Source of the DNA: Candidatus Woesearchaeota archaeon
GTDB taxonomy: Archaea; Nanobdellota; Nanobdellia; Woesearchaeales; GW2011-AR9
DNA: 64,000 nt
Assembly: GCA_018303445.1 (NCBI GenBank)
Contig: JAGVYE010000003.1
Location: forward strand, 2,366-66,365
Reading direction: 5' to 3'
The position numbers and the translations under genes were made by a program. Below, one piece after another: positions 1 to 63,206 of the stretch. How positions within the stretch are numbered: the stretch's first letter is position 1; the number at the start of each line of letters is the position of its first letter. The notes under the pieces are model-generated. The model was given only the letters and a program-made list of their open reading frames with translations. It had not been told where the DNA came from and made no database searches.

Positions 1-909
1 GCTAAACTTTGGATTAATGGAACGGATAATAATACTCATGTAAACATTTCCAGCATTAATATTGTCATGCAGGCTGAAGATGATTATCATGTGGGCATAG
101 GCCAAACTTTATCTAGAACCATTGCGGCGCAAAATGAGAATAAAGAGGTCCTCTTAACAACAACCTGGGATGTTCTGTTTAGAAGTTACAATCAACAAGC
201 AAATACGGCGACAATCCAAATAGGAAAACCATGTCCGCCTTTAACGTATAGCTGCACTGATTCTGATCAGGAACGTGATTATGCGGTGCGAGGACAAGTT
301 AGTGCTTTCGGCGTCACGTATCAAGATCGTTGCGTCGGGAATAATGTACTGGAAGGAGTTTGCGTTGGAAAGAGAGTTGGTTTTGAGTCGTATGCTTGTT
401 CAAATGGATGCGGCAATGGGGTTTGTGTAACGATGTCTGGATGCAGCTCTTCCAATAAAGCCGCTTGTAATGCCGCAAATTGCGCCACTCTCGGTCAAGG
501 TGTCTGGGATACAACAGAAGCCATACCCTTATGCAGGGAAGGACGATGTAAAGGGACAGTTTCACAACATGCAGAGTTATGTCCAGGAGATAGGCAAAGT
601 TTGACCGTCGATACTCCGAGAACTGTCGTCGAACGTTGTCGTGGATTTGGAAGTTGCCTATATGTTTGCAGTTCAGGATTTACGTTGCGCAATGGTGATT
701 GCGTCGCTAATGAAGCCTGCGCTGATGGAGAAGATAATGATGATGATGGGCAGATTGATTGCCTGGATGCTGATTGCGCGGGACTAGATGGACCGAGCGG
801 AACGTTATGTTGCCAGCAAACTGCAGATTGCAGAACGGGAGAAACCTGCCGCGGTTCACAATATACTATCACGGGATCTAATGTCACGATAACTCATTTA
901 CCACGATGA
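1..909 (+). CDS. Cys-rich secreted surface protein, 5'-partial (reading frame is open from base 1; ORF-track start at 67 is probably internal)
   Basis: No stop in frame from position 1. Very Cys-rich. Shares the C-N-x-x-N-C-x-T-L-G-Q-G-V-W module and the D-N-D-D-D-G-Q-I-D-C..CCQ..DCR module with the 13860..16331 paralog. Stop overlaps the next start (ATGA). Confidence 0.6.
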   Translation, partial: AKLWINGTDNNTHVNISSINIVMQAEDDYHVGIGQTLSRTIAAQNENKEVLLTTTWDVLFRSYNQQANTATIQIGKPCPPLTYSCTDSDQERDYAVRGQVSAFGVTYQDRCVGNNVLEGVCVGKRVGFESYACSNGCGNGVCVTMSGCSSSNKAACNAANCATLGQGVWDTTEAIPLCREGRCKGTVSQHAELCPGDRQSLTVDTPRTVVERCRGFGSCLYVCSSGFTLRNGDCVANEACADGEDNDDDGQIDCLDADCAGLDGPSGTLCCQQTADCRTGETCRGSQYTITGSNVTITHLPR

Positions 910-2138
910 TGAAAAAAACATTTTACATATTAGTACTGATGCTTTTAATGTCGGCGGTACTGGGCGAGCTTACCTTAACACTTGACAAAAGCCCGCCCCT
1001 TTATGATCGTGGCAGCAACAATAGGGTGGAAGTCAGCGTGAGCTGCGCGGTGGGAAACAGCAGTACCGTGCATATTCGCAATGCGGAAAATCCTTCGCGG
1101 TTAGTGTATATTGCCGTCGGAAATGGAACTTGGATAGTGAATTATAACACCTTCTCAGATTTAAGCGACGGGAGATATGTGCTTGAAGCTTTTTGCCAAG
1201 AAGGTTCAAATGCGACGGCAAACTTTTGCGTTAATGCAAATAATTGTTTGAATATACAAGGGCCGCCGGATCTTCCTCCCACGTGCAGCGATGGAATCAA
1301 GAATGGAAATGAAGGTTGCGATGATGGTGATACAAGCAATGGTGATGGCTGTTCTGCAACGTGTACAGTCGAATCGGGCTGGAGATGTACGGAAAATGCA
1401 GGCGGGCTTTCAACTTGTACTAGAGTAGGTGGCGGAAGAGGCGACGGAAGCGACGGTGGTGGAGACGGAGGCGGCGGTGATACTGGCAGAGATTCATCTT
1501 CTTCTGGATCTGGAAGCGGCCGCCGCAGGTGCACATCTTCCTGGAGTTGCGATGCCTGGGGATTATGCAATGCTACTTTAAAACAGTCGCGCACCTGCAC
1601 TGACGAAAATCAATGTGATCGAAAACCTCGAGTCGAGGCAAGATCTTGCACCAGCTGTCAAGAGTCGTGGGTATGTTCCCTGTGGAGCGAATGCCGTTCC
1701 GGTTCTCAGTATAGAACCTGTGATGATGAGTATAAATGCGGGACTTTTGTTCAAAGGCCGGAGACAGAGAAACGATGCGATGCGCCTACAGTAGGATTCA
1801 CTCCCCGCAAAATTTCAGAACCAGTGGCAGCGCCTCCTTCAACTTTTCCCCCTTTCGGACAAGAACCAGTCACACGACGGCCGCCAGCAGTTCCTCCAAG
1901 TTTCTTAAGCAAATATCAAAAATTTGCAGTTAGGGGCGGCATTGCTCTGGGAATATTAATTATTCTCGTCGTCATTATTGTTTTGTTTATCAAAAGGAAA
2001 GGTAAAGTAAATTCAGAACTCGCGGCTTGGATAGGACAGGCGCGTAGCGGAGGCAAATCCGATACGTATATTCGAAATGCGTTAGTGGATGAGGGATGGA
2101 CAGAAAAAGAGATTGAAAAGGCGTTGCGAAGGAATTAA
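906..2138 (+). CDS. Cys-rich surface protein: signal peptide, one Myxococcus-type CDDGN..DGCS repeat, Gly/Asp-rich linker, 2x W-x-C-x2-W-S-x-C 6-Cys module, Pro-rich stalk, C-terminal TM helix and conserved cytoplasmic tail
   Basis: N-terminal hydrophobic signal (MMKKTFYILVLMLLMSAVLG). Motif GCDDGDTSNGDGCSATC. Two copies of the SW.C..WS.C...Q.R.C.D...CG module. C-terminal hydrophobic stretch GIALGILIILVVIIVLFI, then tail ..SDTYIRNALVDEGWTEKEIEKAL. Confidence 0.75.
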   Translation: MMKKTFYILVLMLLMSAVLGELTLTLDKSPPLYDRGSNNRVEVSVSCAVGNSSTVHIRNAENPSRLVYIAVGNGTWIVNYNTFSDLSDGRYVLEAFCQEGSNATANFCVNANNCLNIQGPPDLPPTCSDGIKNGNEGCDDGDTSNGDGCSATCTVESGWRCTENAGGLSTCTRVGGGRGDGSDGGGDGGGGDTGRDSSSSGSGSGRRRCTSSWSCDAWGLCNATLKQSRTCTDENQCDRKPRVEARSCTSCQESWVCSLWSECRSGSQYRTCDDEYKCGTFVQRPETEKRCDAPTVGFTPRKISEPVAAPPSTFPPFGQEPVTRRPPAVPPSFLSKYQKFAVRGGIALGILIILVVIIVLFIKRKGKVNSELAAWIGQARSGGKSDTYIRNALVDEGWTEKEIEKALRRN

Positions 2139-2212
2139 TTTCTATCTTGCTGAAAAGAGTGCGTATTAAATCACCGCAAGATTTATATATTGTTGTATGA
2201 TTAATCATACAT

Positions 2213-2803
2213 ATGTATGGAAAAATTAAAATGACGGAAAACACCTTGCAGGTGTTATCTCTATTCACAAACGATTTTAAGAGAGAGTATTATATTCGGG
2301 AAGTTGAAAAATTGTTAAAAATAAGCCCGAGAACCGCCCAGCTTATTCTTGAAGATTTAGAGAATAAAGGAATAGTAGAATCAAAAACAAAAGGAAAAAT
2401 TAAAGCCTATAAGATCAATCCCAGCGAATTTACTAAAAAGTATCTTGTTTTTGCAGAGCAATATAAATCAATTGCATTTTTACAAAACAGGCTTTTAATT
2501 AAAGAGATTATAGACAAGATCACTCCGCAGGTTAAAGGAATGGGAATTATTTTTGGGAGTTATGTTAAAGGGCTGGAACAAGAAGGTTCTGATCTAGATG
2601 TGTTTGTTGCTGGAAATTATAACAAAGACGAGATAAAAGCAGTTTCCAGAAATTTAGGTGTAGAAATAAGTATCAAATGTTATCCCCTAAAAACATTTGA
2701 GAAAAATTTGGCTAAAGATATTCTCCTGAAGGAGATATTAAAAAATCATGTTGTTTTTATTAATGCAGAGCAATTTATACAAAAGGTATTCAAAAATGGA
2801 TAA
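2213..2803 (+). CDS. Nucleotidyltransferase (MNT/MntA-like) with N-terminal winged HTH; antitoxin-type partner of the downstream HEPN gene
   Basis: GSYVKG....SDLDVFV matches the GS-x9-DxD minimal nucleotidyltransferase motif. N-terminal HTH-like region. 8-nt overlap with the following HEPN ORF. Confidence 0.7.
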   Translation: MYGKIKMTENTLQVLSLFTNDFKREYYIREVEKLLKISPRTAQLILEDLENKGIVESKTKGKIKAYKINPSEFTKKYLVFAEQYKSIAFLQNRLLIKEIIDKITPQVKGMGIIFGSYVKGLEQEGSDLDVFVAGNYNKDEIKAVSRNLGVEISIKCYPLKTFEKNLAKDILLKEILKNHVVFINAEQFIQKVFKNG

Positions 2804-3275
2804 AATAAAATGGTGTGCTGGAAAGAAAGAAGGATTAAGTTTAATTGAGCCAAATTCAGATCTTACCAACGCTTACATTAAGAAAGCTGAAGAAGCTTTG
2901 GAATCTATGAGAGTGAATATTATCAAAGATTGGAAAATTTCAACGGCATACTATACAATTTACTTTTCGCTTTATGCCCTTCTTACAAAAATAGGGGTAA
3001 AATGTGAAATTCACTCTTGCACTATTGAATTCGCAAAAAAATTCCTTAAAGATTATTTTGAAGAGTCTGAGTTAAATTTTACTGAAGATTCCTTAAAAGC
3101 AAGAATTGATTCTCAATATTATATTGATAGAACCGTTCCAGATGAGCAATACCATAAGATGATGCGAAAAACTCCGGAATTCTTGGTTAAGTGCAAATCG
3201 ATTCTTATTAAATTGAATGAGAAGAAGATTAACGAGATAAGAGGCAAATTTCAAATAGCGAGTAACAGAAAATGA
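2796..3275 (+). CDS. HEPN-domain protein (HepT-like toxin partner of the MNT). Start moved to the internal ATG at 2796 (MDKIKW...), which overlaps the MNT stop
   Basis: All-alpha ~160 aa protein directly coupled to the MNT gene (ATGGATAA overlap). R-x(4-8)-H-like stretch (DRTVPDEQYH) near the C-terminus. Classic MNT-HEPN gene order. Confidence 0.55.
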   Translation: MDKIKWCAGKKEGLSLIEPNSDLTNAYIKKAEEALESMRVNIIKDWKISTAYYTIYFSLYALLTKIGVKCEIHSCTIEFAKKFLKDYFEESELNFTEDSLKARIDSQYYIDRTVPDEQYHKMMRKTPEFLVKCKSILIKLNEKKINEIRGKFQIASNRK

Positions 3276-3298
3276 AACGAAAGATGCTTTTCTCTTTA

Positions 3299-3451
3299 GC
3301 GAATGAATGACGGCGGGCCGTTCGCTCAGTGGTTTTCTGGCGGTAATCTCAATATAAAAATAAAATTTTTTATCAGAAGAAAACCAACTGTCAACAGATG
3401 CATAGCAATAGCAGTTCCTCGCAAGCATCTTGGCCTTGCCGTCATTCATGG
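3299..3451. repeat. Intergenic element flanked by a 12-bp perfect inverted repeat (atgaatgacggc / gccgtcattcat) with a nested imperfect IR (cagtggttttctgg / cagaagaaaaccaactg). Rod-like ~150-nt structure
   Basis: Direct reading of the sequence at 3301-3314 vs 3438-3451, and 3328-3341 vs 3375-3391. No ORF inside. Confidence 0.5.
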
Positions 3452-3721
3452 AGTTGAATAGTATCAGATTTAAGAGGTTGTTGCGAAACTCTTCATTAGT
3501 GCTGGTGAGAGGCTTGTTCCGCCTCTCAACTTCGCTCCGCTCAAGTCGAATTGCTGAACTCTACAAGGTTAGCTTCATTGGCAAATTATACCCCAGCACA
3601 GACTTTCGCAACAACCTCTAAATTTGGCATTATTGAAAAGTTCTCGTTTCACTTGTGGAGCACCAGCTACGACCTAGACTATTTCTTTGAAGGCTGACGT
3701 TCCCCGGATGGGGTAACCCCC

Positions 3722-3789
3722 CTTGTCAGCTTTATTTCATACTTCAAGTGGTCTCCGCAAGTGGTGCTCCAAACACTTTTCAATAACGC
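3722..3789 (+). repeat. 68-bp conserved intergenic element, copy A. 64/68 identical to copy B at 55765..55832. Ends 50 nt upstream of a + strand start codon
   Basis: cttgtcagctttatttcatacttcaagtggtctccgcaagtggtgctccaaacacttttcaataacgc. Contains a TTTATTT TATA-like box. A partial inverted partner lies at 3630-3667. Confidence 0.6.
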
Positions 3790-3838
3790 CCTAAATTTAG
3801 GAAAAATATATAAAGATTATTTTCTTGCTATCGTAGTG

Positions 3839-6724
3839 ATGTTTAAAAAAAGAGCGTGGATCATGGCGATTGTTTTAATTTTATTAAATTCAACTTTCTT
3901 GCTGGCTGATCATCAGTTAACAATTGGCTCTGTCGGCTGTCCAATTGGCGCTTCCAATCATTGCGTGGAAAATGCTTATTGTCCTTCTTCCGATTTTTAT
4001 GATGGCACAACTCGAATTGCCAGGCAAACGGTATGCACCGAAAAATTGATTAATTACCGACGTTGTAATGCAGATGAGCCTGCTGATCGGAGAGATCAAC
4101 AGTGCTTAGGAATTCTTAGAAATCCTAATCTTCCATTCTCAGCAACAACCAATCCTGTTGATCTGCAAAGCAGATGCCTGCCGGCGGAAACTGATCAGCG
4201 AGGAAATAACCCTCAATTAATTGCAGGACAATATTATTGCCTTCCTATCTATCGCGGACCTACACTTTTTCCTAGTTATGATGGCCAGCAGTGTTACAAC
4301 CAAGAACAATGTTCTAATGGCATTTGCGATCGCAAGGCTGATTTTGAAGATAAAAAAATTTGCCAGCGGGCCTTGATTTCGTCAGCCAACCATTTGGGAG
4401 GGGTCGCTCCTGACGTAACCATTCGCGGCGCCTGTTTTTTTGACCGCCAATGTTTTGGCTACGATCCTCAGAGTAATGCTGATGCCTGCGCTGGAGAAGA
4501 TCGCGCTGTCGTGCCTTACAGTCCGGGAGTTTGCCGTTTGCGGCAAGGACAACCCCAAATCGGGTTTACCATTCGTTCTGACCTTTGGGGAAATATTGAC
4601 GGGACGCCAGCAGCAGCTGATGCTACTAGAATTAGTGTTTATCGGGGAGAAACAATTGAATTAAACTGGAATGTTATGGCGGATACCGTCAACAGCGGTC
4701 CAGTTTCCTGCACGGGAATTAGCAATCCTCCAGGCCTCTGGACGTATTCTCTGCAAAACTGGGAGGACCGTTCCTTTGCGCCCTATCCTTTGCTATGGAG
4801 ACCAGAAACTCCTATTTCTCAGAGAATAGGGCCAATTACTCAGGATACGTCGTTTACCTTTTCTTGCACTAATAGGGAAAGTAGCACTCCCATTTCCAAG
4901 ACCGTACAGGTTACTTTGCGTCCAGTTTCTCCTCCCGCTTGCTCTGGGAATGAAAATAACTGTCTTTTAGCTCATTTGGATTTTGAACGGCCAGAAATAA
5001 ATGGTGAATCAGCTGGGAGACAAATATTTCCCGGCGGTCCTGAAAGCTCTTGCCGTTTTCCTCAAGTTTGCACGAGAAACAGGCTGGGAGAATATTTGCC
5101 CGGCAGATTGCAAGGAAATCCAACTCTAATACCTTCAATAGATTCAAACCAACCTGGACCTAGATTCTACCAATTGGATGGTGTTGATGATGTTGTTTCT
5201 CTTCCTTTAGATATCCGCGACCCGGTTTTTTCTAATGGAGTTACCGTTTCATTTTGGGTTAAGCCGGGAAGTAATAGAAATGAGGACTTATTGGTTTGGG
5301 CTGATTCTGTAGGCGGAAGAATTTTGAATATCCTTTTAAATCCTTCTTCAGGTGGCCAAATTATGACTGTGAGTGCAGGCGGTTTAGGCGGTATAATATT
5401 ATCCCCGTTTTATGGTTCACGATGGAATCAGGTTGTTTTCTCCATCCAGCCGCAGTCAAATCAGCAAACTCTAACTTATCGTGTTTATATCAATGGTCAT
5501 TTAAAGTTTGAAGGGACCCAATCAAATATTCTTTTTCAAACCGGAAAAATGCTTTTGTTTGGTGGGGTTCGTGATTTTTTAAATATCCCACCTTTCACTG
5601 GCAGCATAGATGAAATAAAAATATTTCGTGAAGCGCTGCCAATGAGGCAAATAGCTAATTTATATCGTACAGATGCACTTCAAAATCATAATTACTGGAG
5701 AGGATGTTTGGGAAAAGTGCCAAGTTCCCAGCTTTGTACTATCGAAGTTAATGGTGCAAACTTAGATGATCGTATTGTTACCAATTTGCTAGACAACCAA
5801 GGCCAGTGTCCAGCTACAGTTGGAAGTCGTAATCTTTGCCATGCTTACTGCCTGCCAGGTTATGTCGTCCAGCCAGGCAATAGTATCGGAGAATCCCGCT
5901 GTGTTCCGGAAGGGCAGCAGGATTTGGCTCCTCCAACAATTACCAGTCAACAAGCAACGGATATAACCTCTACTTCTGCTACCTTGCGAGTAATTACCAA
6001 TGAACCAGCAACTTGCAGATATGATCGTATTGATGGCGGTTCTTATAATTCGCTGATCAATCCATTTGCCACGACAGGAGGCACGAGCCATTCTTCTGTT
6101 ATTAACGGTTTAGAACCGCAGGGATACATTTATTTTTTTAATTGCCGGGATAATTTTGGCAATGTGCGCGCCCAAAATTATCAAATCTCATTTGTAATCC
6201 CAGTTGAAACCACTCCGATGCTCTATTATTGTTCCAGCGACCGTAATGAGCCTAATCAGGCCAACAATCCTCCTGCCGGAGGCGTAGGTTTGAGATATTC
6301 GGGATATAATACTCAAATTAGGGGCACTTCGAACATGGTTGATGGTATCTCCCAAACAGACGTTTGCGAATCAGCAACAGCCTTGCGTGAATTTTATTGC
6401 TGGTCAGCGAATGGACGATATATTAACCCAGATAGCGCCGCTGCTGGTTTATTACGATCGGAAGTAGTTAACTGCAATTGTCTTGAGGGCGCCTGCGTCA
6501 GCGCTCCGCCTCCAGCCGCGGCTTGCGGCGATATTGACGCCAATGGCATAATAAATATTGCTGATATTAACCGCCTGATTGCTCATGTAGTGAATCGACA
6601 ACCGCTTACTGCCGATGAACGGCTTAGGGCTAATGTTGACGGGGCTGGAGAGATTACTTTTGGAGATATTTTCCGGTTAATTGATAAGGTGATTAATCCA
6701 TTAACATCTTTGGTCTGCTCATAA
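3839..6724 (+). CDS. Large secreted protein: N-terminal signal/TM, Cys-rich region, LamG/ConA-like lectin domain, C-terminal dockerin (two Ca-binding repeats)
   Basis: Start set at MFKKRAWIMAIVLILL (the ORF-track start at 3761 lies inside the conserved 68-bp element). LamG-like stretch: VTVSFWVKPGS...WNQVVFS...YINGHL...GSIDEIKIF. Dockerin: GDIDANGIINIADINRLIAHV + ANVDGAGEITFGDIFRLIDKV. Confidence 0.75.
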   Translation: MFKKRAWIMAIVLILLNSTFLLADHQLTIGSVGCPIGASNHCVENAYCPSSDFYDGTTRIARQTVCTEKLINYRRCNADEPADRRDQQCLGILRNPNLPFSATTNPVDLQSRCLPAETDQRGNNPQLIAGQYYCLPIYRGPTLFPSYDGQQCYNQEQCSNGICDRKADFEDKKICQRALISSANHLGGVAPDVTIRGACFFDRQCFGYDPQSNADACAGEDRAVVPYSPGVCRLRQGQPQIGFTIRSDLWGNIDGTPAAADATRISVYRGETIELNWNVMADTVNSGPVSCTGISNPPGLWTYSLQNWEDRSFAPYPLLWRPETPISQRIGPITQDTSFTFSCTNRESSTPISKTVQVTLRPVSPPACSGNENNCLLAHLDFERPEINGESAGRQIFPGGPESSCRFPQVCTRNRLGEYLPGRLQGNPTLIPSIDSNQPGPRFYQLDGVDDVVSLPLDIRDPVFSNGVTVSFWVKPGSNRNEDLLVWADSVGGRILNILLNPSSGGQIMTVSAGGLGGIILSPFYGSRWNQVVFSIQPQSNQQTLTYRVYINGHLKFEGTQSNILFQTGKMLLFGGVRDFLNIPPFTGSIDEIKIFREALPMRQIANLYRTDALQNHNYWRGCLGKVPSSQLCTIEVNGANLDDRIVTNLLDNQGQCPATVGSRNLCHAYCLPGYVVQPGNSIGESRCVPEGQQDLAPPTITSQQATDITSTSATLRVITNEPATCRYDRIDGGSYNSLINPFATTGGTSHSSVINGLEPQGYIYFFNCRDNFGNVRAQNYQISFVIPVETTPMLYYCSSDRNEPNQANNPPAGGVGLRYSGYNTQIRGTSNMVDGISQTDVCESATALREFYCWSANGRYINPDSAAAGLLRSEVVNCNCLEGACVSAPPPAAACGDIDANGIINIADINRLIAHVVNRQPLTADERLRANVDGAGEITFGDIFRLIDKVINPLTSLVCS

Positions 6725-7132
6725 AAAGGTATGTATTAAGTCTGGGGCTTTAACATCAACCCGTGGGCCTTCTCGCCAATTAAGATCCAGCAAAAAGGGA
6801 ATTCATGAAATGTGAAAAATATCACATTTCAGTACTGAAAATAAATCTCTGTTTATTTTCATGTTCCAAAAGGAATTTTTGCCTTTGAGTTGCAACATCG
6901 CGTTCTCTAGGTTCGTGAAAATTGCTAAAATATCAAAAATCACTCAGAAAGTGAAATGTGCCCACATAGTTTACGACAAAAATAAATTATAAAGCAAGGT
7001 TATAAACTCTCGTTAAGGATTAATTCAGTTTCAACCAATAATCCATAGCTTATTTATGTCGCCAATTAACAAAAGAAAAAGTATATAAATGGCAAGATTT
7101 TCTCTTAAAGTTGAAAAAAAAGGATGAATTAG

Positions 7133-8572
7133 ATGAAGTTAAATGAGGTTAGTGCAAGTAAGAGTAAACTATCTCGCTCTGTTATTTCTGGCTCTCAGAT
7201 TTCTTCTTTCAAGAAAACAGGGCTGATAGTAATGATAGCAGTTGTGATTTTAGCCATAGGGTTCTCGTTTCTGTTTCCAGCTTCTAAGAAGGGACTGGCA
7301 GGGCGGGCATTCGGGGAAACTGTTGGTGGACCATCAATACCACTCACAAGTTGTGGTCTAATCACTGCGCCAGGAGTCTATACTCTTAACACTGTTCTTT
7401 CTGTCGCTGATTCCGCGTTATCAAATAATGCCTGCGTGACAATTACAGTTGATAACGTCGGCATTCGCTGCACTGCTGGAGGAGGATTTACGTTCACAGG
7501 AAGCAATCCGCTAGCAAAAGGAGTGCGTATCATGAATGTGAATGGTGTGGAAGGTGTTAAGGTGACAGGATGTCAGTTTCTTAGTTTTCCACAGCGCAGC
7601 ATAGAAGTTGAAGGCAGCAGCGGCATTGTTCTTAATGATAATGTCATTATACAATCGGGAAGTATGGGGCAGGGTATTTCTCTTTCAGCTTCACAACGTT
7701 TGTTAGTTGATAAAAATAAAATTTCTGCTCCTATAGGTCTGGCGATGGATAGTACCACGGAAAGTGTTGTCAGCAGGAACATTATTCGCGCGGCACAGAC
7801 AGGAATCTCCGTTGGGCAAGGAAGCAGCATGAATTCTTTTTTTGAGAACACTGTTTCTGGCAGGCAAGCAGGAATAACCGTTGCGGCAACGGATAAAAAT
7901 GATTTTTATCTTAATGTTATCTCCGGAAGCCCGGTAGGGATATCTTTTAGCGGCTCGACAAATACTGGTTTCGGCCAGAATACTTTATGCGGGAATTTTC
8001 AAAATGGGGTGGCCTGCACAAGTACTCCTCCAACTACCTTTAGCGGCGGCAGTGGTAATTTTCTGACGGGAAATAGTTGTTCTAGTTTAGTAGGGGCTTC
8101 TTTTAGTGATTGTCCCAATCCTGCGGTTACTCTTTGCGGCAATAGTTGGGTTGATAATGGCGAACAATGTGATGATGGAAATACTGTCGGAAATGACGGC
8201 TGTTCAAGCACGTGTCAGAATGAACAACCTTCCTTCTCTTGCGCCACTCCTGCCCCAAATAATTCTGATCCTTGCGCTAATCGCGCTAATCCAACTACTG
8301 CCAACACTCCCAATGTTCTGTTTGCTACTTGCCCAACAACTAATGTTCCTGCTTGCAGTTATAGTTGCCGAAGTAATTTTCGATTAAATGCAGGAGTGTG
8401 TGAAGCTGTTCCCGCAGGTTTACCGGCTTGCCATGTACTTAAACAGAGGTGTGATACAAATGAAAAAATTATTATTGATGTTGGCATTATTGCTCCTTCC
8501 TTTTGCTTTAGCAGATATTTCCATAACTTGTTCTCCATCCTCAGTTCAACCAGGCGAAGCTGTGAATTGTAA
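7133..8572 (+). CDS. Membrane-anchored surface protein with a right-handed parallel beta-helix (PbH1-type repeats) and one Myxococcus-type Cys-rich repeat
   Basis: N-terminal TM (LIVMIAVVILAIGFSFLF). Repeating G-x-x-V/I-x-x-N-x-I/V units (NVIIQSG.., NIIRAAQTGISV.., NVISGSPVGISF..). CDDGNTVGNDGCSSTCQ motif. The 3' end overlaps the next gene by ~110 nt in another frame. Confidence 0.65.
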   Translation: MKLNEVSASKSKLSRSVISGSQISSFKKTGLIVMIAVVILAIGFSFLFPASKKGLAGRAFGETVGGPSIPLTSCGLITAPGVYTLNTVLSVADSALSNNACVTITVDNVGIRCTAGGGFTFTGSNPLAKGVRIMNVNGVEGVKVTGCQFLSFPQRSIEVEGSSGIVLNDNVIIQSGSMGQGISLSASQRLLVDKNKISAPIGLAMDSTTESVVSRNIIRAAQTGISVGQGSSMNSFFENTVSGRQAGITVAATDKNDFYLNVISGSPVGISFSGSTNTGFGQNTLCGNFQNGVACTSTPPTTFSGGSGNFLTGNSCSSLVGASFSDCPNPAVTLCGNSWVDNGEQCDDGNTVGNDGCSSTCQNEQPSFSCATPAPNNSDPCANRANPTTANTPNVLFATCPTTNVPACSYSCRSNFRLNAGVCEAVPAGLPACHVLKQRCDTNEKIIIDVGIIAPSFCFSRYFHNLFSILSSTRRSCEL

Positions 8573-9947
8573 CGCAGCTACTACGACTACGTTAAATAAT
8601 GTTGGCAGGTTAAGCTTTACAGTTAATCCCGGAACCTTATTTGAGATTACTAGCACATCTGGCCTTGCAGGAGTGACTTTTAATCCCGCTAATGGCATTG
8701 GAACCTATACCAATGCTCAAGGCATTAATTTTAATGCTAATGCGGTATTATTTACAATTAATTTACGCGCTAAAACTGGAGTTCAAGGCAGCGAATCGAT
8801 TTCATTTAGCCGATTTATCGTAAGAGATCTTACTCCCGCAGATATTAACTTTGGCACTGTAAGAAATTCGAATATGATCACTGTTGGTTCTGCTGACCGT
8901 GCTTGTTCAGAAGCAGATTGGTGTGGTCCATGGGGCACTTGTCCTGCTGGAACTCAAACTAGAACTTGTAACACGCCTGCAGGTGCAGCTTGTACTAGCG
9001 GTGTGACTGCTGAACCAGCAGAAACGCAATCTTGCACTCCAAGTTGCGCTGGAGTTGCGGATGGCGCAGCTTGTACTTTAAGCGGCGCTGCCGGCACTTG
9101 TCAAAGTGGTGGTTGTCAGACAGTACCTGGAACTTGTACTGCTCGCGCCACAACTTGTAATGTAGCTGGTGTTGATTGTCCTAATGGTCCAACTGGAACT
9201 CCTGTTCGTGTTAACCGAATAATTTGCCCTAGCGAAACTCCTTGTAATCCGACAACTGGATTATGTCAAGCAGTTGCATGTACTGCTCGCGCCACAACTT
9301 GTATTCAGGCAGGTGTTAGTTGCCCCTCTGGTTCATCTGGTGCTGCTGTTACAGTAGCTCAAGTAGTTTGCAGTGATGCAACTCCTGTTTGTAATACTAT
9401 AACTGGTTTATGTGAAGCCGCTCCTGCCTGTATTGACGCAGATAATGATAGGTATTACCCTGGAGAGTTTAGTACTCAATGCTTTATAACTGGCCAACCT
9501 TTGGGTTTTGGAGATTGCAATGATAATAATCCTCTCATTCATCCTAGCGATAATGAATTGATTTGTAATGATGGATTAGATAATGATTGCAATGGTTTCA
9601 CTGATTGCGCAGATGTCTTGGCTTGCGTTCGTTTAGCTTGTGTAACCGGCGGAGTTGCCGGAACTTGCCAAAATAATGGTATTTGTCAACCGCCTGCTGG
9701 TCGTGGAGCAACAAGTTGCACTGAAGGTCAATCCATAACTGGAACACCGTCTTGTAATTGTGATGCAAAAGTTATTTCCGGAGCAACTTATCAGCGTCAT
9801 GAAATTGGCGGACAATGCACCCTTCTGCTGGGCAAAATTAAAGCCGAATTTGAATCATCGCGTAATGCTTTGCAAAAAATGGTGAATATGGCGCGGTTGC
9901 TGCGTTGTTACATTTCCAGTACCAGAGCAACTTGCATGGAACAATAA
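8460..9947 (+). CDS. Secreted Cys-rich protein: signal peptide, N-terminal Ig-like (possibly cohesin-like) domain, W-C-W module, 2x A-T-C-x-x-A-G-V-x-C-P...V-C-S..T-P-x-C-N-x-x-T-G-L-C-E repeats, conserved GQCTLLL..IK C-terminus
   Basis: Start moved to MKKLLLMLALLLLPFALA (signal peptide). Paralogous in its N- and C-terminal segments to 12269..13822. Confidence 0.65.
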   Translation: MKKLLLMLALLLLPFALADISITCSPSSVQPGEAVNCNAATTTTLNNVGRLSFTVNPGTLFEITSTSGLAGVTFNPANGIGTYTNAQGINFNANAVLFTINLRAKTGVQGSESISFSRFIVRDLTPADINFGTVRNSNMITVGSADRACSEADWCGPWGTCPAGTQTRTCNTPAGAACTSGVTAEPAETQSCTPSCAGVADGAACTLSGAAGTCQSGGCQTVPGTCTARATTCNVAGVDCPNGPTGTPVRVNRIICPSETPCNPTTGLCQAVACTARATTCIQAGVSCPSGSSGAAVTVAQVVCSDATPVCNTITGLCEAAPACIDADNDRYYPGEFSTQCFITGQPLGFGDCNDNNPLIHPSDNELICNDGLDNDCNGFTDCADVLACVRLACVTGGVAGTCQNNGICQPPAGRGATSCTEGQSITGTPSCNCDAKVISGATYQRHEIGGQCTLLLGKIKAEFESSRNALQKMVNMARLLRCYISSTRATCMEQ

Positions 9948-9951
9948 GATC

Positions 9952-12240
9952 ATGAAAACTACTGCTGAAGATAATCTGGACCATTCTAAAATAAAGAATG
10001 AAAAGAAAGGGCAGGCAAATCAGAAATTAGTAGTAATCAGTATCTTTGCAGTAGTATTATTAGGAGCGCTGATAGTGTTATATTTCTTTACGGACACTTT
10101 TGTGGGAAGAGCGTTTCAAACTGGAATTAGGAATTCTGCCGGATTGGATTTCAGCGGCGGAATAGAAAATCTGCCTTTAAATGACGAGGGAACTTATCCT
10201 CTTAAAGCTAATGTTGATCAAGCCGTGAGAATCAATGCGATTAATTTTGTGATGAAGTATGATTCTGCCAAGTTATCAGTTAATAATTGCCAGCAGCGAG
10301 TTCAGCAAACTTTAGATAGTTATTTTAATTATAATCTCATTAATGATTTATCCTTAATACGAGAAGTTTCCTGTGATCCAGCAGGAAAAATAACGGTTAA
10401 TTATGTTTTTGCCTGTGATCCAACCAACAATTGCAATAATTTACCGGCTCCTGCTGCCTCCGGAGATATTTTCTTGGCAATATTTCTTTTTACTGGCATT
10501 GCGGCAGGAACTGCGGACGTTTATTTTGAATCATTAGACATTTATGATGTTAATTCACTGCCTGGAACTACGGCAGTTTCATTAAATTCTCCGACGAGAA
10601 CTAGCCCGGATAGAATTACTGTACGTCAGACTACGGAAACTGTTGATCAATCACTAGCTTGCACTAGTTCTAATGACTGTTCGACAGGACAAACATGCAG
10701 CGGCGGTATTTGTATTTCACCCCGTTGCGGCAATGGCGTACTTGAAGTAATAGAACAGTGCGATGATGGAAATACTGCTGGAGATGACGGCTGTTCTTCA
10801 ACCTGTCAAATTTATGAAGCAGGATGGCTATGTAATACACCCGGTCAGCTCTGCCAAAAATTATGCGGCAATGGGGTTGTTGAAGTTGCAGCTAGTGAAT
10901 GGTGTGATGATGGAAATAATGCCAATGGCGATGGCTGCACTCGTACTTGTCAAATGGAGAACGGATATGTTTGTCCAAGAAGAGGCGGAGTATGTATTTT
11001 AAGTACACAGGCTTGCGGCGACGGAGTAGTGCAAGTTGGTGAATATTGCGATGATGGAAATGCCGCTTCAAGTGATGGCTGCGCAGCTTGTCAAATTGAA
11101 AATGGATATACTTGCAGTGGCAGCCCTTCTGCTTGTGTTCGTATGGGGGAGACCACTTATATAAATTTTTGTGGCGATGGAATAATCCAAGACAATGGCG
11201 GGAATGGAATTGCCGGAGATATCGATGATGAACAATGTGATGACGGCAATCGAAATGATAATGATGCTTGCACTAATATTTGCCGCACTGCCTTTTGCGG
11301 TGATGGAGTTGTCAGAGCTGGAACAGAACAATGCGATGACGGCAATCGAAATGATAATGACGCTTGCACTAATATTTGCCGCACTGCCTTTTGCGGCGAT
11401 GGAGTTGTCAGAGCTGGAACAGAACAATGTGATGACGGCAATATGGTAAATACTGATGGCTGCACCACTCAATGTCGTACAAATGTTTGCGGTGATGGAA
11501 TTGTTTGGATAAGAACAGAATATTGCGATGATGGCAATCTAGTGAATGACGATGGTTGTTCAAGTACCTGTCAAATTGAGTTAATAGGCCGCTGCGGTGA
11601 TGGAACAGTTAACCCTAATGAACAATGTGACGATGGGAATCAAAATGATAATGACGCTTGCACTAATATTTGTCGCACTGCCTTTTGCGGCGATGGAGTT
11701 GTCAGAGCTGGAACAGAACAATGTGATGACAGCAATCCTGCAAATTATGATGATTGTACCAATGAATGTCGTATTGCCGTTTGCGGTGATGGAATTACCA
11801 GAGCTGGAACAGAACAATGTGATGATAGGAATACTATTACTGAAATATGTGCTTATGGTCAACGATCGTGTACTGTCTGTAATAATCAATGTCAATCTGT
11901 TGCTGGCGCAGCGACGTATTGTGGTGACGGAATTATACAAACGGGTGAACAGTGCGATGATGGAAATGCAGTTCTTGGTGATGGATGTTCAGCAACGTGC
12001 AGCGTAGAATCTAGTGGTGCTGGGTTATTGGGCGATGTAAATGGCGATGAGGTTGTAGATTTAGCTGATGCTATTGATGTTGCCAGATTTGATTTAGGTA
12101 TTTCGACTAGTCTAACATTCAATGCAGCGCGGGGAGATGTGACCTGTAATAATGGAGCAGTAGACATTGCTGATGCTATACTTATTGCCAGGGTTGATTT
12201 AGGAATTCCTGGATTTAATATCCCTAATTCCTGTTCATGA
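9952..12240 (+). CDS. Scaffoldin-like surface protein: N-terminal TM anchor, Ig/cohesin-like domain, ~14 Myxococcus-type Cys-rich repeats (C-x-DGN-x6-C-x3-C), C-terminal dockerin
   Basis: TM: VVISIFAVVLLGALIVLYFF. Repeats: CDDGNxxxxDxC(T/S)xxC..CGDG. C-terminal dockerin: GDVNGDEVVDLADAIDVARFDLG + GDVTCNNGAVDIADAILIARVDLG. Confidence 0.75.
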   Translation: MKTTAEDNLDHSKIKNEKKGQANQKLVVISIFAVVLLGALIVLYFFTDTFVGRAFQTGIRNSAGLDFSGGIENLPLNDEGTYPLKANVDQAVRINAINFVMKYDSAKLSVNNCQQRVQQTLDSYFNYNLINDLSLIREVSCDPAGKITVNYVFACDPTNNCNNLPAPAASGDIFLAIFLFTGIAAGTADVYFESLDIYDVNSLPGTTAVSLNSPTRTSPDRITVRQTTETVDQSLACTSSNDCSTGQTCSGGICISPRCGNGVLEVIEQCDDGNTAGDDGCSSTCQIYEAGWLCNTPGQLCQKLCGNGVVEVAASEWCDDGNNANGDGCTRTCQMENGYVCPRRGGVCILSTQACGDGVVQVGEYCDDGNAASSDGCAACQIENGYTCSGSPSACVRMGETTYINFCGDGIIQDNGGNGIAGDIDDEQCDDGNRNDNDACTNICRTAFCGDGVVRAGTEQCDDGNRNDNDACTNICRTAFCGDGVVRAGTEQCDDGNMVNTDGCTTQCRTNVCGDGIVWIRTEYCDDGNLVNDDGCSSTCQIELIGRCGDGTVNPNEQCDDGNQNDNDACTNICRTAFCGDGVVRAGTEQCDDSNPANYDDCTNECRIAVCGDGITRAGTEQCDDRNTITEICAYGQRSCTVCNNQCQSVAGAATYCGDGIIQTGEQCDDGNAVLGDGCSATCSVESSGAGLLGDVNGDEVVDLADAIDVARFDLGISTSLTFNAARGDVTCNNGAVDIADAILIARVDLGIPGFNIPNSCS
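11233..11814 (+). repeat. Tandem 96-bp (32-codon) repeats inside 9952..12240. Three copies are almost identical at DNA level (11233-11328, 11329-11424, 11623-11718) and others are diverged
   Basis: Repeat unit caatgtgatgacggcaatcgaaatgataatga(t/c)gcttgcactaatatttgccgcactgccttttgcgg(t/c)gatggagttgtcagagctggaacagaa. Confidence 0.85.
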
Positions 12241-12268
12241 AAAGGTGTTCATGAAAAGGTGAAATAAA

Positions 12269-13822
12269 ATGGTGCAAAGAAAATTTAAATCTTGGATGAT
12301 CATTGGTTTATTCATTTTAATGCTTCCCATAGCGGCCGCGGTTAATTTTAATGTAAATTGTCCTGCTTCATCTCTTTCTGGTCAAAGTTTTACCTGTCAA
12401 GTAAATATGCCGACGCCTCTGGCATCAGGTCTTTCATCATTGAGTTTTACTGCTAATGCTGGCGGAGCAACTATTGCCGTAACTTTTCCCCAAGGCACCA
12501 CGGTCAGCAGTGGCGGCACGTATGGTTTTTTTACTCCTACGCCAGTAACTAATTCTAATCCTTTAGCCTCCGTGCAAATAACTCCTATTACTGGCCAAAC
12601 CTCTGTAACATTACAATTGACTGGTGTGCGAGGACGATTGGGAGATAATACTTTACTTCTTCCTGCAAATCCAGCGCCAAATAATATTGCATTTAATAGT
12701 CCAACAGTAACTATTGGCTCTACTTGTACGTCAACAGGAAATGCAGAAACTAGTTGTAATGGAATAGATGATGATTGTGATGGCAGTGTTGATGAAAATT
12801 TCGTTGGAACGTCTACCACTTGCGGAGTAGGAGTCTGCGTTGCAACTGGATTGACAACCTGTCCGAGAGCTTCAGGTCAAACAACTGTAGGCAATAGCTG
12901 TACTCCTAGAACTCCAATAGCTGAAGTTTGCACTGACAGTTTAGATAATGATTGCGATGGAACGGTTAATGAGGGTTGTACTGTTTGTGTTCCTCGTGAT
13001 CCCACTGCCTGCACAACTGGTGTTGAATGTCCAAGCGGGAATAGTCTTCCAGCTTTAGGCTGTTCTAATGGTCAAAGTTGTCAGGGAAGTCCGGCTAGTT
13101 GTCAACCAACAGCAGCAGGAAATAATCTGCCGGTAGCAGAAGATGATACTTTTACCGTTGTTTTAGGAGCTGGTGCTGGCAGTCTAGAAACTACTTTTAA
13201 TGTTTTAACTAATGATCGAGATCCAGATAATGATGCTTTACGTATTACCAGCACCACTCAACCGGCTAATGGTTTAGTTTCTTTGCCATCAAACCGAAGA
13301 ATTTCTTATCGCAGCAACGCTGGATTTACAGGGACAGATTCATTTACTTACACTATCAGCGATGGCCGCGGCGGAACAGCTACGGCTACGGTAACGGTGA
13401 CAGTGAGTTCTTCTTTAACTTGCACTTTTCGCGCCGCAACTTGCAGTCAAGCAGGTGTTAATTGTCCTGATGGCTCTGGCGGCGAACCTGTTAGTATTGA
13501 CCGGGTAGTTTGCAGCGGTGTAACTCCTTTTTGTAATACTAAAACTGGCTTATGTGAAACTGGCTGTGCGGAAGGAACCTTGTTAGCAGATCCACCTGTG
13601 TGTACTTGTGTTGCTCCTTTGCAGAATGTTGATGGTGTTTGTAAATGTCCTCCTTCAGCAGGAAGGGCTCAGCATCTGGTGAGAGGGCAATGCACACTTT
13701 TACTTACAGAAATTAAAGATTCTTTAGAAAACGATCAGCAATATAGCGGAATAATGCAGAAAGTTTCCCGTATCGCTGAAGCGTTGAAGAATTTCCTGAG
13801 GGCAGTTCATTTAATTAATTAA
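12269..13822 (+). CDS. Secreted Cys-rich protein, paralog of 8460..9947: signal peptide, Ig/cohesin-like N-domain, Cys-rich region, C-terminal conserved GQCTLLLTEIK helix
   Basis: Signal: WMIIGLFILMLPIAAA. N-terminus NVNCPASSLSGQSFTCQVN parallels SITCSPSSVQPGEAVNC in the paralog. Shares the CTFRAATCSQAGVNCPDG...VVCSGVTPFCNTKTGLCE module. Confidence 0.65.
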   Translation: MVQRKFKSWMIIGLFILMLPIAAAVNFNVNCPASSLSGQSFTCQVNMPTPLASGLSSLSFTANAGGATIAVTFPQGTTVSSGGTYGFFTPTPVTNSNPLASVQITPITGQTSVTLQLTGVRGRLGDNTLLLPANPAPNNIAFNSPTVTIGSTCTSTGNAETSCNGIDDDCDGSVDENFVGTSTTCGVGVCVATGLTTCPRASGQTTVGNSCTPRTPIAEVCTDSLDNDCDGTVNEGCTVCVPRDPTACTTGVECPSGNSLPALGCSNGQSCQGSPASCQPTAAGNNLPVAEDDTFTVVLGAGAGSLETTFNVLTNDRDPDNDALRITSTTQPANGLVSLPSNRRISYRSNAGFTGTDSFTYTISDGRGGTATATVTVTVSSSLTCTFRAATCSQAGVNCPDGSGGEPVSIDRVVCSGVTPFCNTKTGLCETGCAEGTLLADPPVCTCVAPLQNVDGVCKCPPSAGRAQHLVRGQCTLLLTEIKDSLENDQQYSGIMQKVSRIAEALKNFLRAVHLIN

Positions 13823-13859
13823 TGGGGTTAGTTTATGAGGGTGAAGATGAGGTTAGTTT

Positions 13860-18431: not shown

Positions 18432-20009
18432 ATGAGAAATGTCAATAAAGAAAAAGTATTGGTAGCTCTAGCTATTATTATTCTTATCGCAGCTTTTCTA
18501 CTAACTTACATCCCTAAAGGGCCGTTGTTTGGCAAGGCCGTAAGTACAGGAATGACGCATGCCATCTCCATCCAAAATTTTGCTTTCTCACAACTGGAAG
18601 TTACTATTAATGTTGGGGACACAGTCACGTGGACAAATAATGACCAAGCTACACATATGGTAGTTTCGAGAGGAAGCGGACCTTTAGATTCTGGTACGAT
18701 GGTAAACGGGCAAAGTTATAGTTATACTTTTGTTGCTTCTGGCACCTATGAATTCTTTTGTTCCCTTCATCCATTTATTATGATCCCTGGAAGGGTTATA
18801 GTTATTAATGCCACCCCTGCCATTCCGCCGACTCCGCCTTCGCCTCCGCTAGACTCGCTGCCTCCCCAACCTTCGCCACCCCCTCCTCCGCCAGCGGCAA
18901 CGCCGCCTGTGATAGAGATGCCTTCATTAAACATAACTCTTGTCACTCCTTCTCACTCAGGTGCAGTTCAGAATGGAACAGTGAATTTCACGTACCTTTT
19001 TCAGGGAATAACTCCCAGCCAATGTATGTTATATGGAAATTTTAGCGGCACGTGGCAGCCAGGTCTTGCTCAAACAGTAGCTGTTAATGGGAGTTATACA
19101 TTTACTTCTAATCTTTTGAATGGAAGTTACCTTTGGAATGTTCTCTGCAGCAGCAGTTCAACGCAAGGGCTGGTAAGTAAATGGGGAAGCAGGAATTACA
19201 CTTTAACTGTGGCTGTACCAGCAAGTTCTCTTTCCGTCCCTAATATTTCTCAACAAAATCAAATCATGGTTGCTCTTCTTACTCCTGCTGATCGTGCCGC
19301 GTTGCAAAATGAAAGCGTTTCTTTCTCTTTTTCTTTTACAGGACCAACTCAAGGAAGTTGTCAGCTTTATGGCGATTTTAATGGCAGTTGGAGTATGAAT
19401 ACCAGCCTGGCTTCTCTTAATAATGGAACCTCTCGTCTCACTTTTAATGTTGGTAATGGACGTTATCTCTGGAACGTACATTGTGTTGATAGTGCTAATC
19501 TTTCTAATGAAGATTGGAGTGATTATAACTGGAGTGTTAGTGTTTCCCAATTGTCTGTGAATGTCTCGAGTCAAACAAATGCCACAAATATAACTTCTTG
19601 TTTAGAAGCCTGGAGTTGTACAGGGTGGTCTTTATGTGAATTTGGCAGGCAAACACGAATATGCACTGACCAAAATAATTGTGGAACCTTTTTACAAAGA
19701 CCGCCTCAGACCCAAGTTTGTGTTCAGCAGCAGGCAGCAGCAACAACAACTTCTCCAGCAAGTGGAAGTAATTTTCCTTCTACGAACACTGCAGCACAAC
19801 CAACACGGGCTCCTCCTTCCTTTCCTGCTCCTTCTCTTTCAGATACTGAAAAGAAACCTTTGGTGCAGCAGCCAAAAGAAACAACACAGAAAAAAAGTAC
19901 TCTTCTCTTCCTTATCCTTGGCACAACTGTTGCTTTGGTGGGTTTCATCCTCTACCGTAGGCACGTTGAAGTCATATGTGGCAAAAGACAGGATGAGAGG
20001 AGTCAATGA
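18432..20009 (+). CDS. Membrane-anchored surface protein with N-terminal type-1 copper cupredoxin domain, Pro-rich linker, 2x Ig-like N-glycosylated repeats, W-C-W module, C-terminal TM. Apparent +1 frameshift before the conserved cytoplasmic tail, which continues in frame +1 to 20082
   Basis: Cupredoxin ligands: H in ATHMVV, then C..H..M in FFCSLHPFIM. PPTPPSPPLDSLPPQPSPPPPPP linker. Repeated NGSYLWNVLC / NGRYLWNVHC. CLEAWSCTGWSLC module. TM LLFLILGTTVALVGFILY. Tail homolog (VNDTAIRQNLAQAGWNKNDIDEAMKK) is encoded in the other frame (ORF 19636..20082). Confidence 0.7.
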   Translation: MRNVNKEKVLVALAIIILIAAFLLTYIPKGPLFGKAVSTGMTHAISIQNFAFSQLEVTINVGDTVTWTNNDQATHMVVSRGSGPLDSGTMVNGQSYSYTFVASGTYEFFCSLHPFIMIPGRVIVINATPAIPPTPPSPPLDSLPPQPSPPPPPPAATPPVIEMPSLNITLVTPSHSGAVQNGTVNFTYLFQGITPSQCMLYGNFSGTWQPGLAQTVAVNGSYTFTSNLLNGSYLWNVLCSSSSTQGLVSKWGSRNYTLTVAVPASSLSVPNISQQNQIMVALLTPADRAALQNESVSFSFSFTGPTQGSCQLYGDFNGSWSMNTSLASLNNGTSRLTFNVGNGRYLWNVHCVDSANLSNEDWSDYNWSVSVSQLSVNVSSQTNATNITSCLEAWSCTGWSLCEFGRQTRICTDQNNCGTFLQRPPQTQVCVQQQAAATTTSPASGSNFPSTNTAAQPTRAPPSFPAPSLSDTEKKPLVQQPKETTQKKSTLLFLILGTTVALVGFILYRRHVEVICGKRQDERSQ

Positions 20010-20145
20010 TACTGCCATTCGCCAAAATTTGGCACAGGCAGGATGGAATAAGAATGATATTGATGAAGCGATGAAAAAATAGATTTAAGTTTTCTTGTTG
20101 TAGGTGACGTTACTTTATCAGTATCAAAAAAAGCTCTATAGAAAA

Positions 20146-62902: not shown

Positions 62903-62960
62903 TTTTTTATTTACTCTCAGAGTAAGTAAAAGTACTCAGTTAGAGTACATATATGTACCT

Positions 62961-63046: not shown

Positions 63047-63206
63047 TTCCCTATGGGGAAAGAACGTTCCTGAAAATCCTTCTGGATTTCTGGGACACGA
63101 CGTTATCGACAACAACGTTGTTGGTAGCGATTGGTTGAGTTTGATGGAGCATGTATTCAACATGCGAGATAACATCATAATAATGAGCCATATGTAGATC
63201 AAAGTA

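Follow-up and report, generated by a model that had tools for sequence, protein, structure and literature searches.

The 64,000-nucleotide stretch of DNA analysed here, referred to below as the window (contig JAGVYE010000003.1, positions 2,366 to 66,365 of the forward strand, from the Candidatus Woesearchaeota archaeon assembly GCA_018303445.1), encodes four proteins that carry a small module of 41 amino acids with six cysteines, of the form C-x3-W-x-C-x2-W-x2-C-x6/7-R-x-C-x-D-x3-C-x12-C. Copies were sought by a six-frame regular-expression scan and by hidden Markov model (HMM) searches of all six-frame open reading frames (ORFs) in the 64 kb, using also an independent HMM (mod2) that was built solely from homologues outside the window. 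Both scans agree on exactly six copies, all on the + strand, and these are the same six, spread across four proteins, that a preliminary description of this DNA had reported; the interval 1500-1800 flagged there corresponds to copies 1 and 2. E-values are those of the independent HMM:

1530-1649, + strand: module copy 1, A-type, 40 residues, CTSSWSCDAWGLCNATLKQSRTCTDENQCDRKPRVEARSC, in gene 906-2138 (E 4e-8)
1656-1778, + strand: module copy 2, B-type, 41 residues, CQESWVCSLWSECRSGSQYRTCDDEYKCGTFVQRPETEKRC, in gene 906-2138 (E 8e-13)
8904-9035, + strand: module copy 6, divergent, 44 residues, CSEADWCGPWGTCPAGTQTRTCNTPAGAACTSGVTAEPAETQSC, in gene 8388/8460-9947 (E 6e-5)
15663-15782, + strand: module copy 3, A-type, CVSNWQCDLWSYCNSTLQKSRTCIDLRKCIQKPKLEVQSC, in gene 13860-16331 (E 2e-8)
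15789-15911, + strand: module copy 4, B-type, CEESWLCTSWSQCFGSTKTRTCTDEHKCGTLRLKPSEQQQC, in gene 13860-16331 (E 1e-13)
19599-19721, + strand: module copy 5, B-type, CLEAWSCTGWSLCEFGRQTRICTDQNNCGTFLQRPPQTQVC, in gene 18432-20009 (E 6e-15)

The independent HMM gives 30-51 bits for the five clean copies and 19 bits for the divergent one, with the next best match in the window at E > 1; the divergent copy, in which the first Trp is shifted and the C4-C5 loop is longer, reaches E 2e-9 with the A3 profile. The window module shows the full-length HMM match together with C1, C3, C5, C6, W5, W10, R20 and D24 by which we propose to define the family. A chance or compositional repeat is excluded by the E-values of the independent HMM, which lie far beyond chance, and a recent duplication or assembly artefact is ruled out by the DNA identity of 56% between the A+B pairs of genes 906 and 13860. 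Between these pairs, third codon positions are 41% identical and second positions 70%, which marks them as old paralogues under purifying selection.

Copies of the B-type follow the pattern …C-x2-G-x-Q-x-R-x-C-x-D-x3-C-G-T-x3-K-P-x5-C, in agreement with the motif originally given, which had specified a four-residue loop and a C-G-T sequence. That motif does not extend to the two A-type copies: these always stand first in a pair, have a loop that is one residue longer and holds a C-N-x-T sequon, and possess a shorter C5-C6 loop that lacks CGT and KP. The sequon lies directly after C3 in both A-type copies of the window (1566-1574 and 15699-15707; C-N-A-T and C-N-S-T), and an N-x-T/S sequon is found after C3 in 7 of 11 A-type copies of close homologues (P0001-P0015), making this position a candidate conserved N-glycosylation site on the stalk. 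Apart from this conserved C-N-x-T, sequons within the module show no enrichment over an estimated column-frequency expectation.

Column frequencies were calculated from 699 distinct full-length copies out of 171 family proteins. C1, C3 and C6 are present in 100% of these copies, C5 in 99%, and C2 and C4 in 88% each; W5 (98%), D24 (97%), W10 (96%), R20 (93%) and P35 (92%) are conserved to a similar degree, followed by Q18 (82%), N26 (80%) and G29 (75%). The distribution of C2 and C4 is informative as to disulfide pairing: both are present in 617 copies, neither in 81, and one copy holds only one of them, so that 81 of the 82 variant copies show joint loss (Fisher p = 2e-106, not corrected for shared ancestry), with Thr/Val or Pro/Tyr as the main replacements. 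This covariation implies a C2-C4 (C7-C22) disulfide, which would be dispensable. For the other four cysteines no informative double losses were found, including among 153 further copies from 80 GTDB loci.

The module belongs to a large, very widespread and so far unnamed family of surface proteins from DPANN archaea and from the candidate phyla radiation (CPR/Patescibacteria). Searching 1.84 billion cluster representatives with a 39-copy profile returned 7,328 proteins at E<=1e-3; tightening the cut-off to E<=1e-10 leaves 1,749 of them, and to E<=1e-30, 209. A single protein holds as many as 17 matched stretches; this census leans toward multi-copy, high-scoring proteins. The earlier statement that the module matches no described domain holds for Pfam-A, NCBIfam and PDB sequences. 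Pfam-A (hmmscan) leaves the module uncovered in nine window proteins (E<=1) and nine homologues (E<=10) and shows no module match in 63 carriers with 4-17 copies each (E<=1e-3), NCBIfam has no match over the module, and neither module profile finds a meaningful match among PDB sequences (A1, one stretch of a Spike glycoprotein at E 2.1; A3, none). The six copies (A1) were too short a query for a word-indexed homology search, which gave no match. The source-database names of ten carriers are either 'hypothetical protein' or absent, and full-text literature searches turned up no description of the module. The clean match to an existing family that would have made the module a known one was thus not found, even though its predicted fold is similar to that of a known domain, the thrombospondin type-1 repeat (TSR), as set out below.

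In order to survey the range of the family, GTDB was scanned at one genome per species with the core peptide [NGF][GS]xQTR[TI]CTD, taken from 12 closer B-type copies; this gave 130 confirmed stretches, and 80 loci were kept, with group labels as found in the record titles. Named DPANN groups account for 35 of these 80 loci (Woese-, Pace-, Nano-, Aenigm- and Micr-archaeota, Iainarchaeum/Diapherotrites), unnamed archaea for 15, CPR/Patescibacteria for 15 (Kerfeld-, Buchanan- and Staskawicz-bacteria, Paceibacterota) and others for the final 15: 14 from a single TPA_asm series of metagenome-assembled genomes (MAGs) and one MAG labelled only 'bacterium'. Independent support for bacterial membership comes from the presence of PG_binding_1 alongside the module in 10 of 63 multi-copy carriers, and for archaeal membership from that of the Pfam S-layer domain (PF07752) in 7 of the 63. 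The TPA_asm loci (L001, L010, L013, L024, L034, L037, L042, L043, L046, L056, L064, L072, L074 and L080) bear the unverified labels Methanosarcinales (9), Gammaproteobacteria (4) and Bacteroides (1): either these labels are placeholders or errors, or the module extends beyond DPANN and CPR. A viral collection yielded a single locus (L081 5001-5123, IMGVR_UViG_3300047994_000219; module copy with 41% identity), which may belong to a virus that infects DPANN or CPR cells, or else be a cellular contig that was misclassified; with one such locus only, a phage-borne domain was rejected.

Structure prediction with AlphaFold2 was performed for a single B-type module (gene 906 copy 2, using a 39-copy alignment) and for the A+B tandem of gene 906 (78 aligned pairs). 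The single module was modelled with a predicted local distance difference test score (pLDDT) of 95.2 and exhibits four short strands (residues 5-7, 17-19, 22-24 and 38-40); the tandem reached a pLDDT of 93, with about 91-96 for the A-type copy 1, which shows three strands, the first one short, and a longer B-C hairpin. According to these models the module would form a small, elongated three-stranded sheet with a TSR-like architecture of stacked Trp, Arg and disulfide layers, in which an irregular first strand would contribute W5, C7, W10 and C13, the second Q18, R20 and C22, whilst the third would end at C41. Given antiparallel A/B and B/C strands and the C2-C4 bridge, C1 would come to lie close to C5 at the B-C loop, and C3 close to C6, where strand C ends; from this strand topology alone we infer the pairs C1-C5 and C3-C6.

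Comparison with the PDB by Foldseek returned, for the single module, TSR-bearing chains as all six best matches (complement C7 and C8, and MIC2), amongst them Toxoplasma gondii MIC2 from the MIC2-M2AP complex (8j64_B, 49 residues: TM-score 0.61 on the query and 0.53 on the target, root-mean-square deviation 3.2 Å over 40 columns). For the tandem, the five best matches were to the TSR3-4 pair of Semaphorin-5A (E about 0.2), with Unc5A and C6/C7 lower down. The presence of TSRs in the protein families of the best matches was confirmed. The module is thus predicted to resemble a TSR in fold, through matches that are consistent yet statistically weak.

The module-bearing proteins of the window are secreted or membrane proteins of a DPANN-type archaeon, and their remaining features are the following:

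906-2138, + strand: gene 906, a 410-residue type-I surface protein
906-965, + strand: signal peptide of gene 906, followed by an Ig-like N-domain
about 1284-1388, + strand: one DUF4215/myxo_disulf repeat of gene 906 (library match)
1428-1529, + strand: Gly/Ser/Asp linker of gene 906, preceding modules A+B
1779-1922, + strand: Pro-rich linker of gene 906 with a PSF..Y motif ahead of the transmembrane (TM) helix
1923-1991, + strand: TM helix of gene 906
1992-2135, + strand: conserved cytoplasmic tail of gene 906, ...GKSDTYIRNALVDEGWTEKEIEKAL
8460-9947, + strand: gene 8388/8460, a secreted Cys-rich protein with a probable start MKKLLL at 8460
13860-16331, + strand: gene 13860, an 823-residue surface protein
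15912-16040, + strand: Gln/Pro linker of gene 13860
16041-16097, + strand: TM helix of gene 13860
16098-16328, + strand: cytoplasmic tail of gene 13860
18432-20009, + strand: gene 18432, a 525-residue surface protein with an N-terminal signal anchor
18561-18803, + strand: cupredoxin domain of gene 18432
19722-19895, + strand: Thr/Pro/Gln linker of gene 18432
19896-19955, + strand: TM helix of gene 18432
19966-20079, + strand: cytoplasmic tail domain of gene 18432, LKSYVAKDRMRGVNDTAIRQNLAQAGWNKNDIDEAMKK, in another frame (tail HMM E 1.5e-15, frame-0 ORF)

Three of these proteins share what we term an anchor cassette: an A-type module, two residues, a B-type module, a Pro/Gln/Thr linker of 43-58 residues that terminates in a PSF(W)..Y motif, the TM helix, a basic stretch and a cytoplasmic tail of ~45 residues (L.EWI..E...G.S...I...L....GW...EI..A). 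In gene 13860 it follows an N-terminal signal anchor, cohesin-like and Cys-rich domains, one DUF4215 repeat and a poly-Gly segment; gene 18432 holds a version with a single B-type module, separated from the cupredoxin domain by two beta domains rich in N-glycosylation sequons. The cassette therefore bears a different ectodomain in each of the three proteins (Ig-like, cohesin-like and cupredoxin), and in the form seen in genes 906 and 13860 it is kept in ten full-length homologues (E 1e-61 to 1e-24). Gene 8388 is organised differently: a cohesin-like N-domain, the divergent module (residues 173-216 of 519, joining this domain to the Cys-rich region), Cys-rich repeats and a MopE-like motif, with no C-terminal TM helix. 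The Pfam-A and NCBIfam scans of the window proteins revealed no PGF-CTERM or archaeosortase signal.

The cytoplasmic tail domain (1992-2135, 16098-16328 and 19966-20079) has no match in Pfam or NCBIfam either. It sits across the membrane from the module, being C-terminal in type-I and N-terminal in type-II-oriented proteins (also N-terminal in P0052, P0080 and P0089, and C-terminal in P0088 and P0165), and may represent a second unnamed small domain, possibly a docking or signalling element. Gene 18432 ends 18 codons past the TM helix, with the conserved tail continuing in another reading frame. A single base seems to have shifted the frame just behind the TM helix, where no homopolymer run is present; a sequencing error, a pseudogenising mutation or a genuine truncation could each account for this.

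The architecture of the 171 family proteins places the cassette in a wider frame. A signal peptide or signal anchor stands at the N-terminus of nearly all of them, and every partner domain is extracellular: PG_binding_1, archaeal S-layer, Big_7, CARDB, Kre9_KNH, FG-GAP, LamG, cohesin and cupredoxin. Modules are usually arranged head to tail (for example in P0025 and P0022) with linkers mostly of 0-5 residues (mode 3), and the arrays can adjoin the N-terminal signal peptide or stand between other domains. A C-terminal TM helix within 150 residues of the last copy is found in 43 of the 171 proteins, whilst 104 have no TM helix after the modules at all.

We favour the reading that the module is an autonomous extracellular domain with three disulfides and a TSR-like fold, which serves mainly as a rigid spacer or stalk unit and is possibly adhesive; we hold this to be slightly better than even (probability about 0.55). 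Its absence of catalytic or cofactor residues, its occurrence in head-to-tail arrays and the variety of ectodomains that it accompanies make a rigid spacer the most likely role. Each copy would act as a disulfide-locked bead in a stalk that sets the height of the ectodomain above the membrane or cell wall; in the window, one or two such beads would form the outer part of the anchor cassette on the three surface proteins. The module may also be adhesive, given the strong conservation of polar residues on its surface and an adhesion domain as its nearest fold; the conserved polar face (Q18, D24, N26, K34 and Q39) may contribute adhesive contacts. Several points weigh against this reading. Both spacer and adhesive functions are argued from architecture, and the conservation of D24 (97%), N26 (80%) and Q18 (82%) may point to a specific ligand or to a Ca2+ site instead of a passive spacer. 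As for the fold, the Foldseek E-values of 0.2-4 are not significant, TM-scores are only moderately informative for a query of 41 residues, and the amino-acid term in Foldseek could favour other chains rich in Cys and Trp; the stacking of Trp and Arg and the pairs C1-C5 and C3-C6 remain predictions; and sequence and profile comparisons of the module with TSRs were negative.

Were the resemblance to reflect descent, the module would be a true, highly divergent member of the TSP1/TSR superfamily, in effect a prokaryotic TSR. The top Foldseek matches of two independent models are TSRs, both domains have six cysteines, the local motif W-S-x-C...G-x-Q-x-R-x-C recalls the TSR motif W-S-x-C-S-x-x-C-G-x-G-x-x-x-R-x-R-x-C, and TSRs of the TRAP type also begin with a Cys ahead of the Trp strand. 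Profile comparison speaks otherwise: no TSP1-type Pfam model was found in 81 carriers, including those with 7-17 copies (nine window proteins at E<=1, nine homologues at E<=10 and 63 further carriers at E<=1e-3), the module profiles retrieved no TSR from PDB sequences, and hhalign, run against small TSR alignments, gave a probability of 4% for A3 against seven verified TSRs and 6% for the 699 modules against nine TSRs including TRAP, with only C-x-x-G-x-x-x-R aligned in the latter case. The Trp-Arg ladder motif WxxW(xxW)/RxR(xR) is absent from the module, where W5 and W10 stand four residues apart around Cys7 and R20 is the only conserved Arg, following Q18; a reduced W-R-W stack is possible. 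The pairing differs too, the covariation implying C2-C4 where the group-1 TSR pattern is said to be C1-C5, C2-C6 and C3-C4 (reportedly described by Tan et al. in 2002), and 41 residues are short compared with about 50-60. One paper treats TSP1 as a domain of animals and apicomplexans only. We regard true membership as doubtful, and the module, although TSR-like in its predicted architecture, is not filed as a TSR.

The adhesive component of our reading could instead be the principal one, with the module binding a glycan, cell-wall or host-envelope ligand and so attaching episymbiotic DPANN and CPR cells to their hosts. TSRs are adhesion and glycosaminoglycan-binding domains; they are the nearest fold, and structures of Sema5A TSR3-4 with sulfated ligands are among the Foldseek matches. 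The distribution of the family is concentrated in episymbiont-type lineages of both domains of life, the adhesive domains PG_binding_1, cohesin-like, LamG and FG-GAP co-occur with it, and the polar patch named above is conserved. Set against this, the conserved polar residues may merely stabilise a tiny fold, the juxtamembrane site beneath other ectodomains in the window proteins is poorly placed for host binding, and arrays of up to 17 near-identical units appear structural; we consider a chiefly adhesive domain unlikely, if worth keeping in mind. More improbable still is a dedicated membrane-proximal stalk base that oligomerises or inserts into the S-layer, as the preliminary description had suggested. 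The position just before a Pro/Gln-rich stalk and TM helix is indeed correct for three of the four proteins and five of the six copies of the window, and equally for every copy in the 21 closest homologues, the modules lying 20-60 residues before the C-terminal TM helix; it fails for the internal copy of gene 8388, which has no TM helix, and, given the family-wide counts and the arrays placed N-terminally or between domains, as a rule for the family. The S-layer domain seen in 7 of 63 multi-copy carriers is the sole link to S-layer insertion, carriers from CPR with PG_binding_1 have no archaeal S-layer, and nothing found (from models of monomers only) points to an oligomer. Finally, so many invariant cysteines might form a metal-binding motif (Zn, Cu or Fe-S) in place of disulfides, the more so as neighbouring genes encode cupredoxin and MopE-like 'Cu-binding' motifs and, to judge by sample names, many carriers probably live in anoxic groundwater. 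Every carrier examined is extracellular, however, the module has no conserved His, C2 and C4, and they alone, go missing as a pair with hydrophobic residues (T/V, P/Y) in their place, as one would expect of a dispensable disulfide but not of a metal site, and the fold is confidently modelled with no ligand, its nearest matches being disulfide-bonded TSRs; a metal site is hard to credit.

The spacer reading with a TSR-like fold thus describes something that is new in its motif, disulfide pattern and DPANN/CPR range and known in kind, in that it is a small extracellular repeat rich in disulfides and predicted to fold like a TSR; since unnamed domain families are common in DPANN and CPR lineages, the surprise is tempered. 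Even so, the domain occurs in thousands of protein clusters with no Pfam or NCBIfam model and with carriers annotated as 'hypothetical', and a definition of the family would at once annotate much of the 'dark matter' at the cell surface of these lineages, whose surface proteins are prime candidates for host recognition and attachment, processes that are poorly understood at the molecular level in most of them. The same module in archaeal and bacterial ultrasmall lineages speaks for inter-domain gene exchange or for common selection on the envelope, and a TSR-like prokaryotic fold, if true, would signify convergence with, or ancient kinship to, an adhesion domain of animals and apicomplexans. 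The boldest combination of these possibilities, a prokaryotic TSR-type domain with a Trp/Arg ladder that was exchanged between DPANN and CPR, acts as a host-attachment adhesin and is perhaps linked to the eukaryotic TSR, is one for which we see rather slim odds. Of more immediate use is the anchor cassette, with its modules, linker, TM helix and tail, as a simple signature for type-I surface proteins in Woesearchaeota-like genomes. Family size, presence in ultrasmall lineages of both domains of life and a possible TSR-type architecture together merit a curated family and a structure.

The window itself is archaeal chromosome. A 16S rRNA gene lies at 61335-62902, followed by a tRNA in the spacer and by the beginning of the 23S gene, and the ribosomal protein S6e (recognised from its translation), FtsZ, aminoacyl-tRNA synthetases and a P-type ATPase are also encoded. 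Among named sequences, the closest homologues of the module-bearing proteins belong to MAGs of Woesearchaeota and Nanoarchaeota; the 906 protein itself is found in identical form on 17 metagenome contigs, of which one is from sample ANAN16-1. The 16S rRNA match is 1,568 nt long compared with 1,478 positions in the archaeal model, which indicates ~90 nt of extra sequence (insertions) in the gene. The spacer tRNA at 62960-63047 (86-88 nt; Rfam tRNA 62.9 bits) is reported by ARAGORN as 'tRNA-???' with anticodon 'gc' and probably holds an intron or an unusual anticodon loop.

An island of + strand genes takes up the first 20 kb; it encodes large, Cys-rich proteins, either secreted or located in the membrane, with DUF4215/myxo_disulf repeats, MopE-like motifs and NosD-type beta-helix, LamG, cadherin-like and cupredoxin domains. 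Within it, consecutive genes for Cys-rich secreted proteins occupy 67-16331 on the + strand, also with Big_9/cadherin-like domains and with weak, sub-threshold dockerin-like matches at two C-termini. Gene 9952-12240 encodes ten DUF4215 repeats, several of them nearly identical in protein, with CGDGVVRAGTEQCDDGNRNDNDACTNICRTAF present three times. Genes 8388-9947 and 12269-13822 resemble paralogues, each with a putative cohesin-like N-domain, and have in common repeated units of the type CT(A/F)RA.TC.QAGV.CP.G..G..V....VVCS..TP.CN..TGLCE and a C-terminal helix GQCTLLL..IK; Pfam covers none of these common parts. Amid the surface-protein genes, two small overlapping genes at 2213-3275 may be a toxin-antitoxin pair of the MNT/HEPN type, the first showing weak precomputed matches to the nucleotidyltransferase families NTP_transf_2/Polbeta (seen on identical contigs).

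Amongst known systems, the other short disulfide-rich repeats of prokaryotic surface proteins are the most direct neighbours of the module: DUF4215 (TIGR02232, myxo_disulf_rpt) and the MopE-type double-disulfide repeats are likewise extracellular and occur in the same window proteins and adjacent genes. DUF4215 is distinguished by an acidic C-D-D-G-N... motif and lacks the Trp and Arg core; as a candidate for the module it was rejected, its matches lying elsewhere (residues 125-161 of 906 and 250-293 of 13860) and never on the module. EGF-like domains come close in having about 40 residues, six cysteines, an extracellular location, tandem arrays and a C2-C4 pair, the EGF pattern being C1-C3, C2-C4 and C5-C6. 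They differ from the module in predicted strand order, and were rejected as a candidate in view of its C4-x5-C5 spacing in place of C-x-C and with no EGF HMM match in the window proteins, homologues or carriers; no EGF chain is among the Foldseek matches listed (21 for the single module, the first 50 for the tandem), and EGF domains are common in the PDB. With the TSR, as found in thrombospondin-1, properdin, semaphorin-5A, complement C6-C9 and TRAP/MIC2 (TSP_1, PF00090), the module shares small size, extracellular location, six cysteines, use in tandem and, as in the adhesins TRAP and MIC2 where a TSR stands just before the TM helix, a place next to the membrane; by prediction it may also share an elongated fold of three strands, the first of which would bear Trp and the second Arg. 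It departs from the TSR in its length (41 versus about 50-60 residues), in having W-x-C-x2-W for WxxWxxW and a single conserved Arg for RxRxR, in lacking CSxTCG, in a C2-C4 bridge that would join strands A and B between the two Trp residues, and in its occurrence in DPANN archaea and CPR bacteria, not eukaryotes. At the level of the whole protein, the stalks of archaeal surface glycoproteins provide the nearest parallel: in these, a glycosylated linker rich in Thr and Pro leads to a C-terminal TM helix or PGF-CTERM anchor, and the window proteins repeat this plan of ectodomain, extended Pro/Gln/Thr linker and C-terminal TM helix, whilst adding to it a folded, disulfide-rich module before the linker and a conserved cytoplasmic tail after the TM helix.

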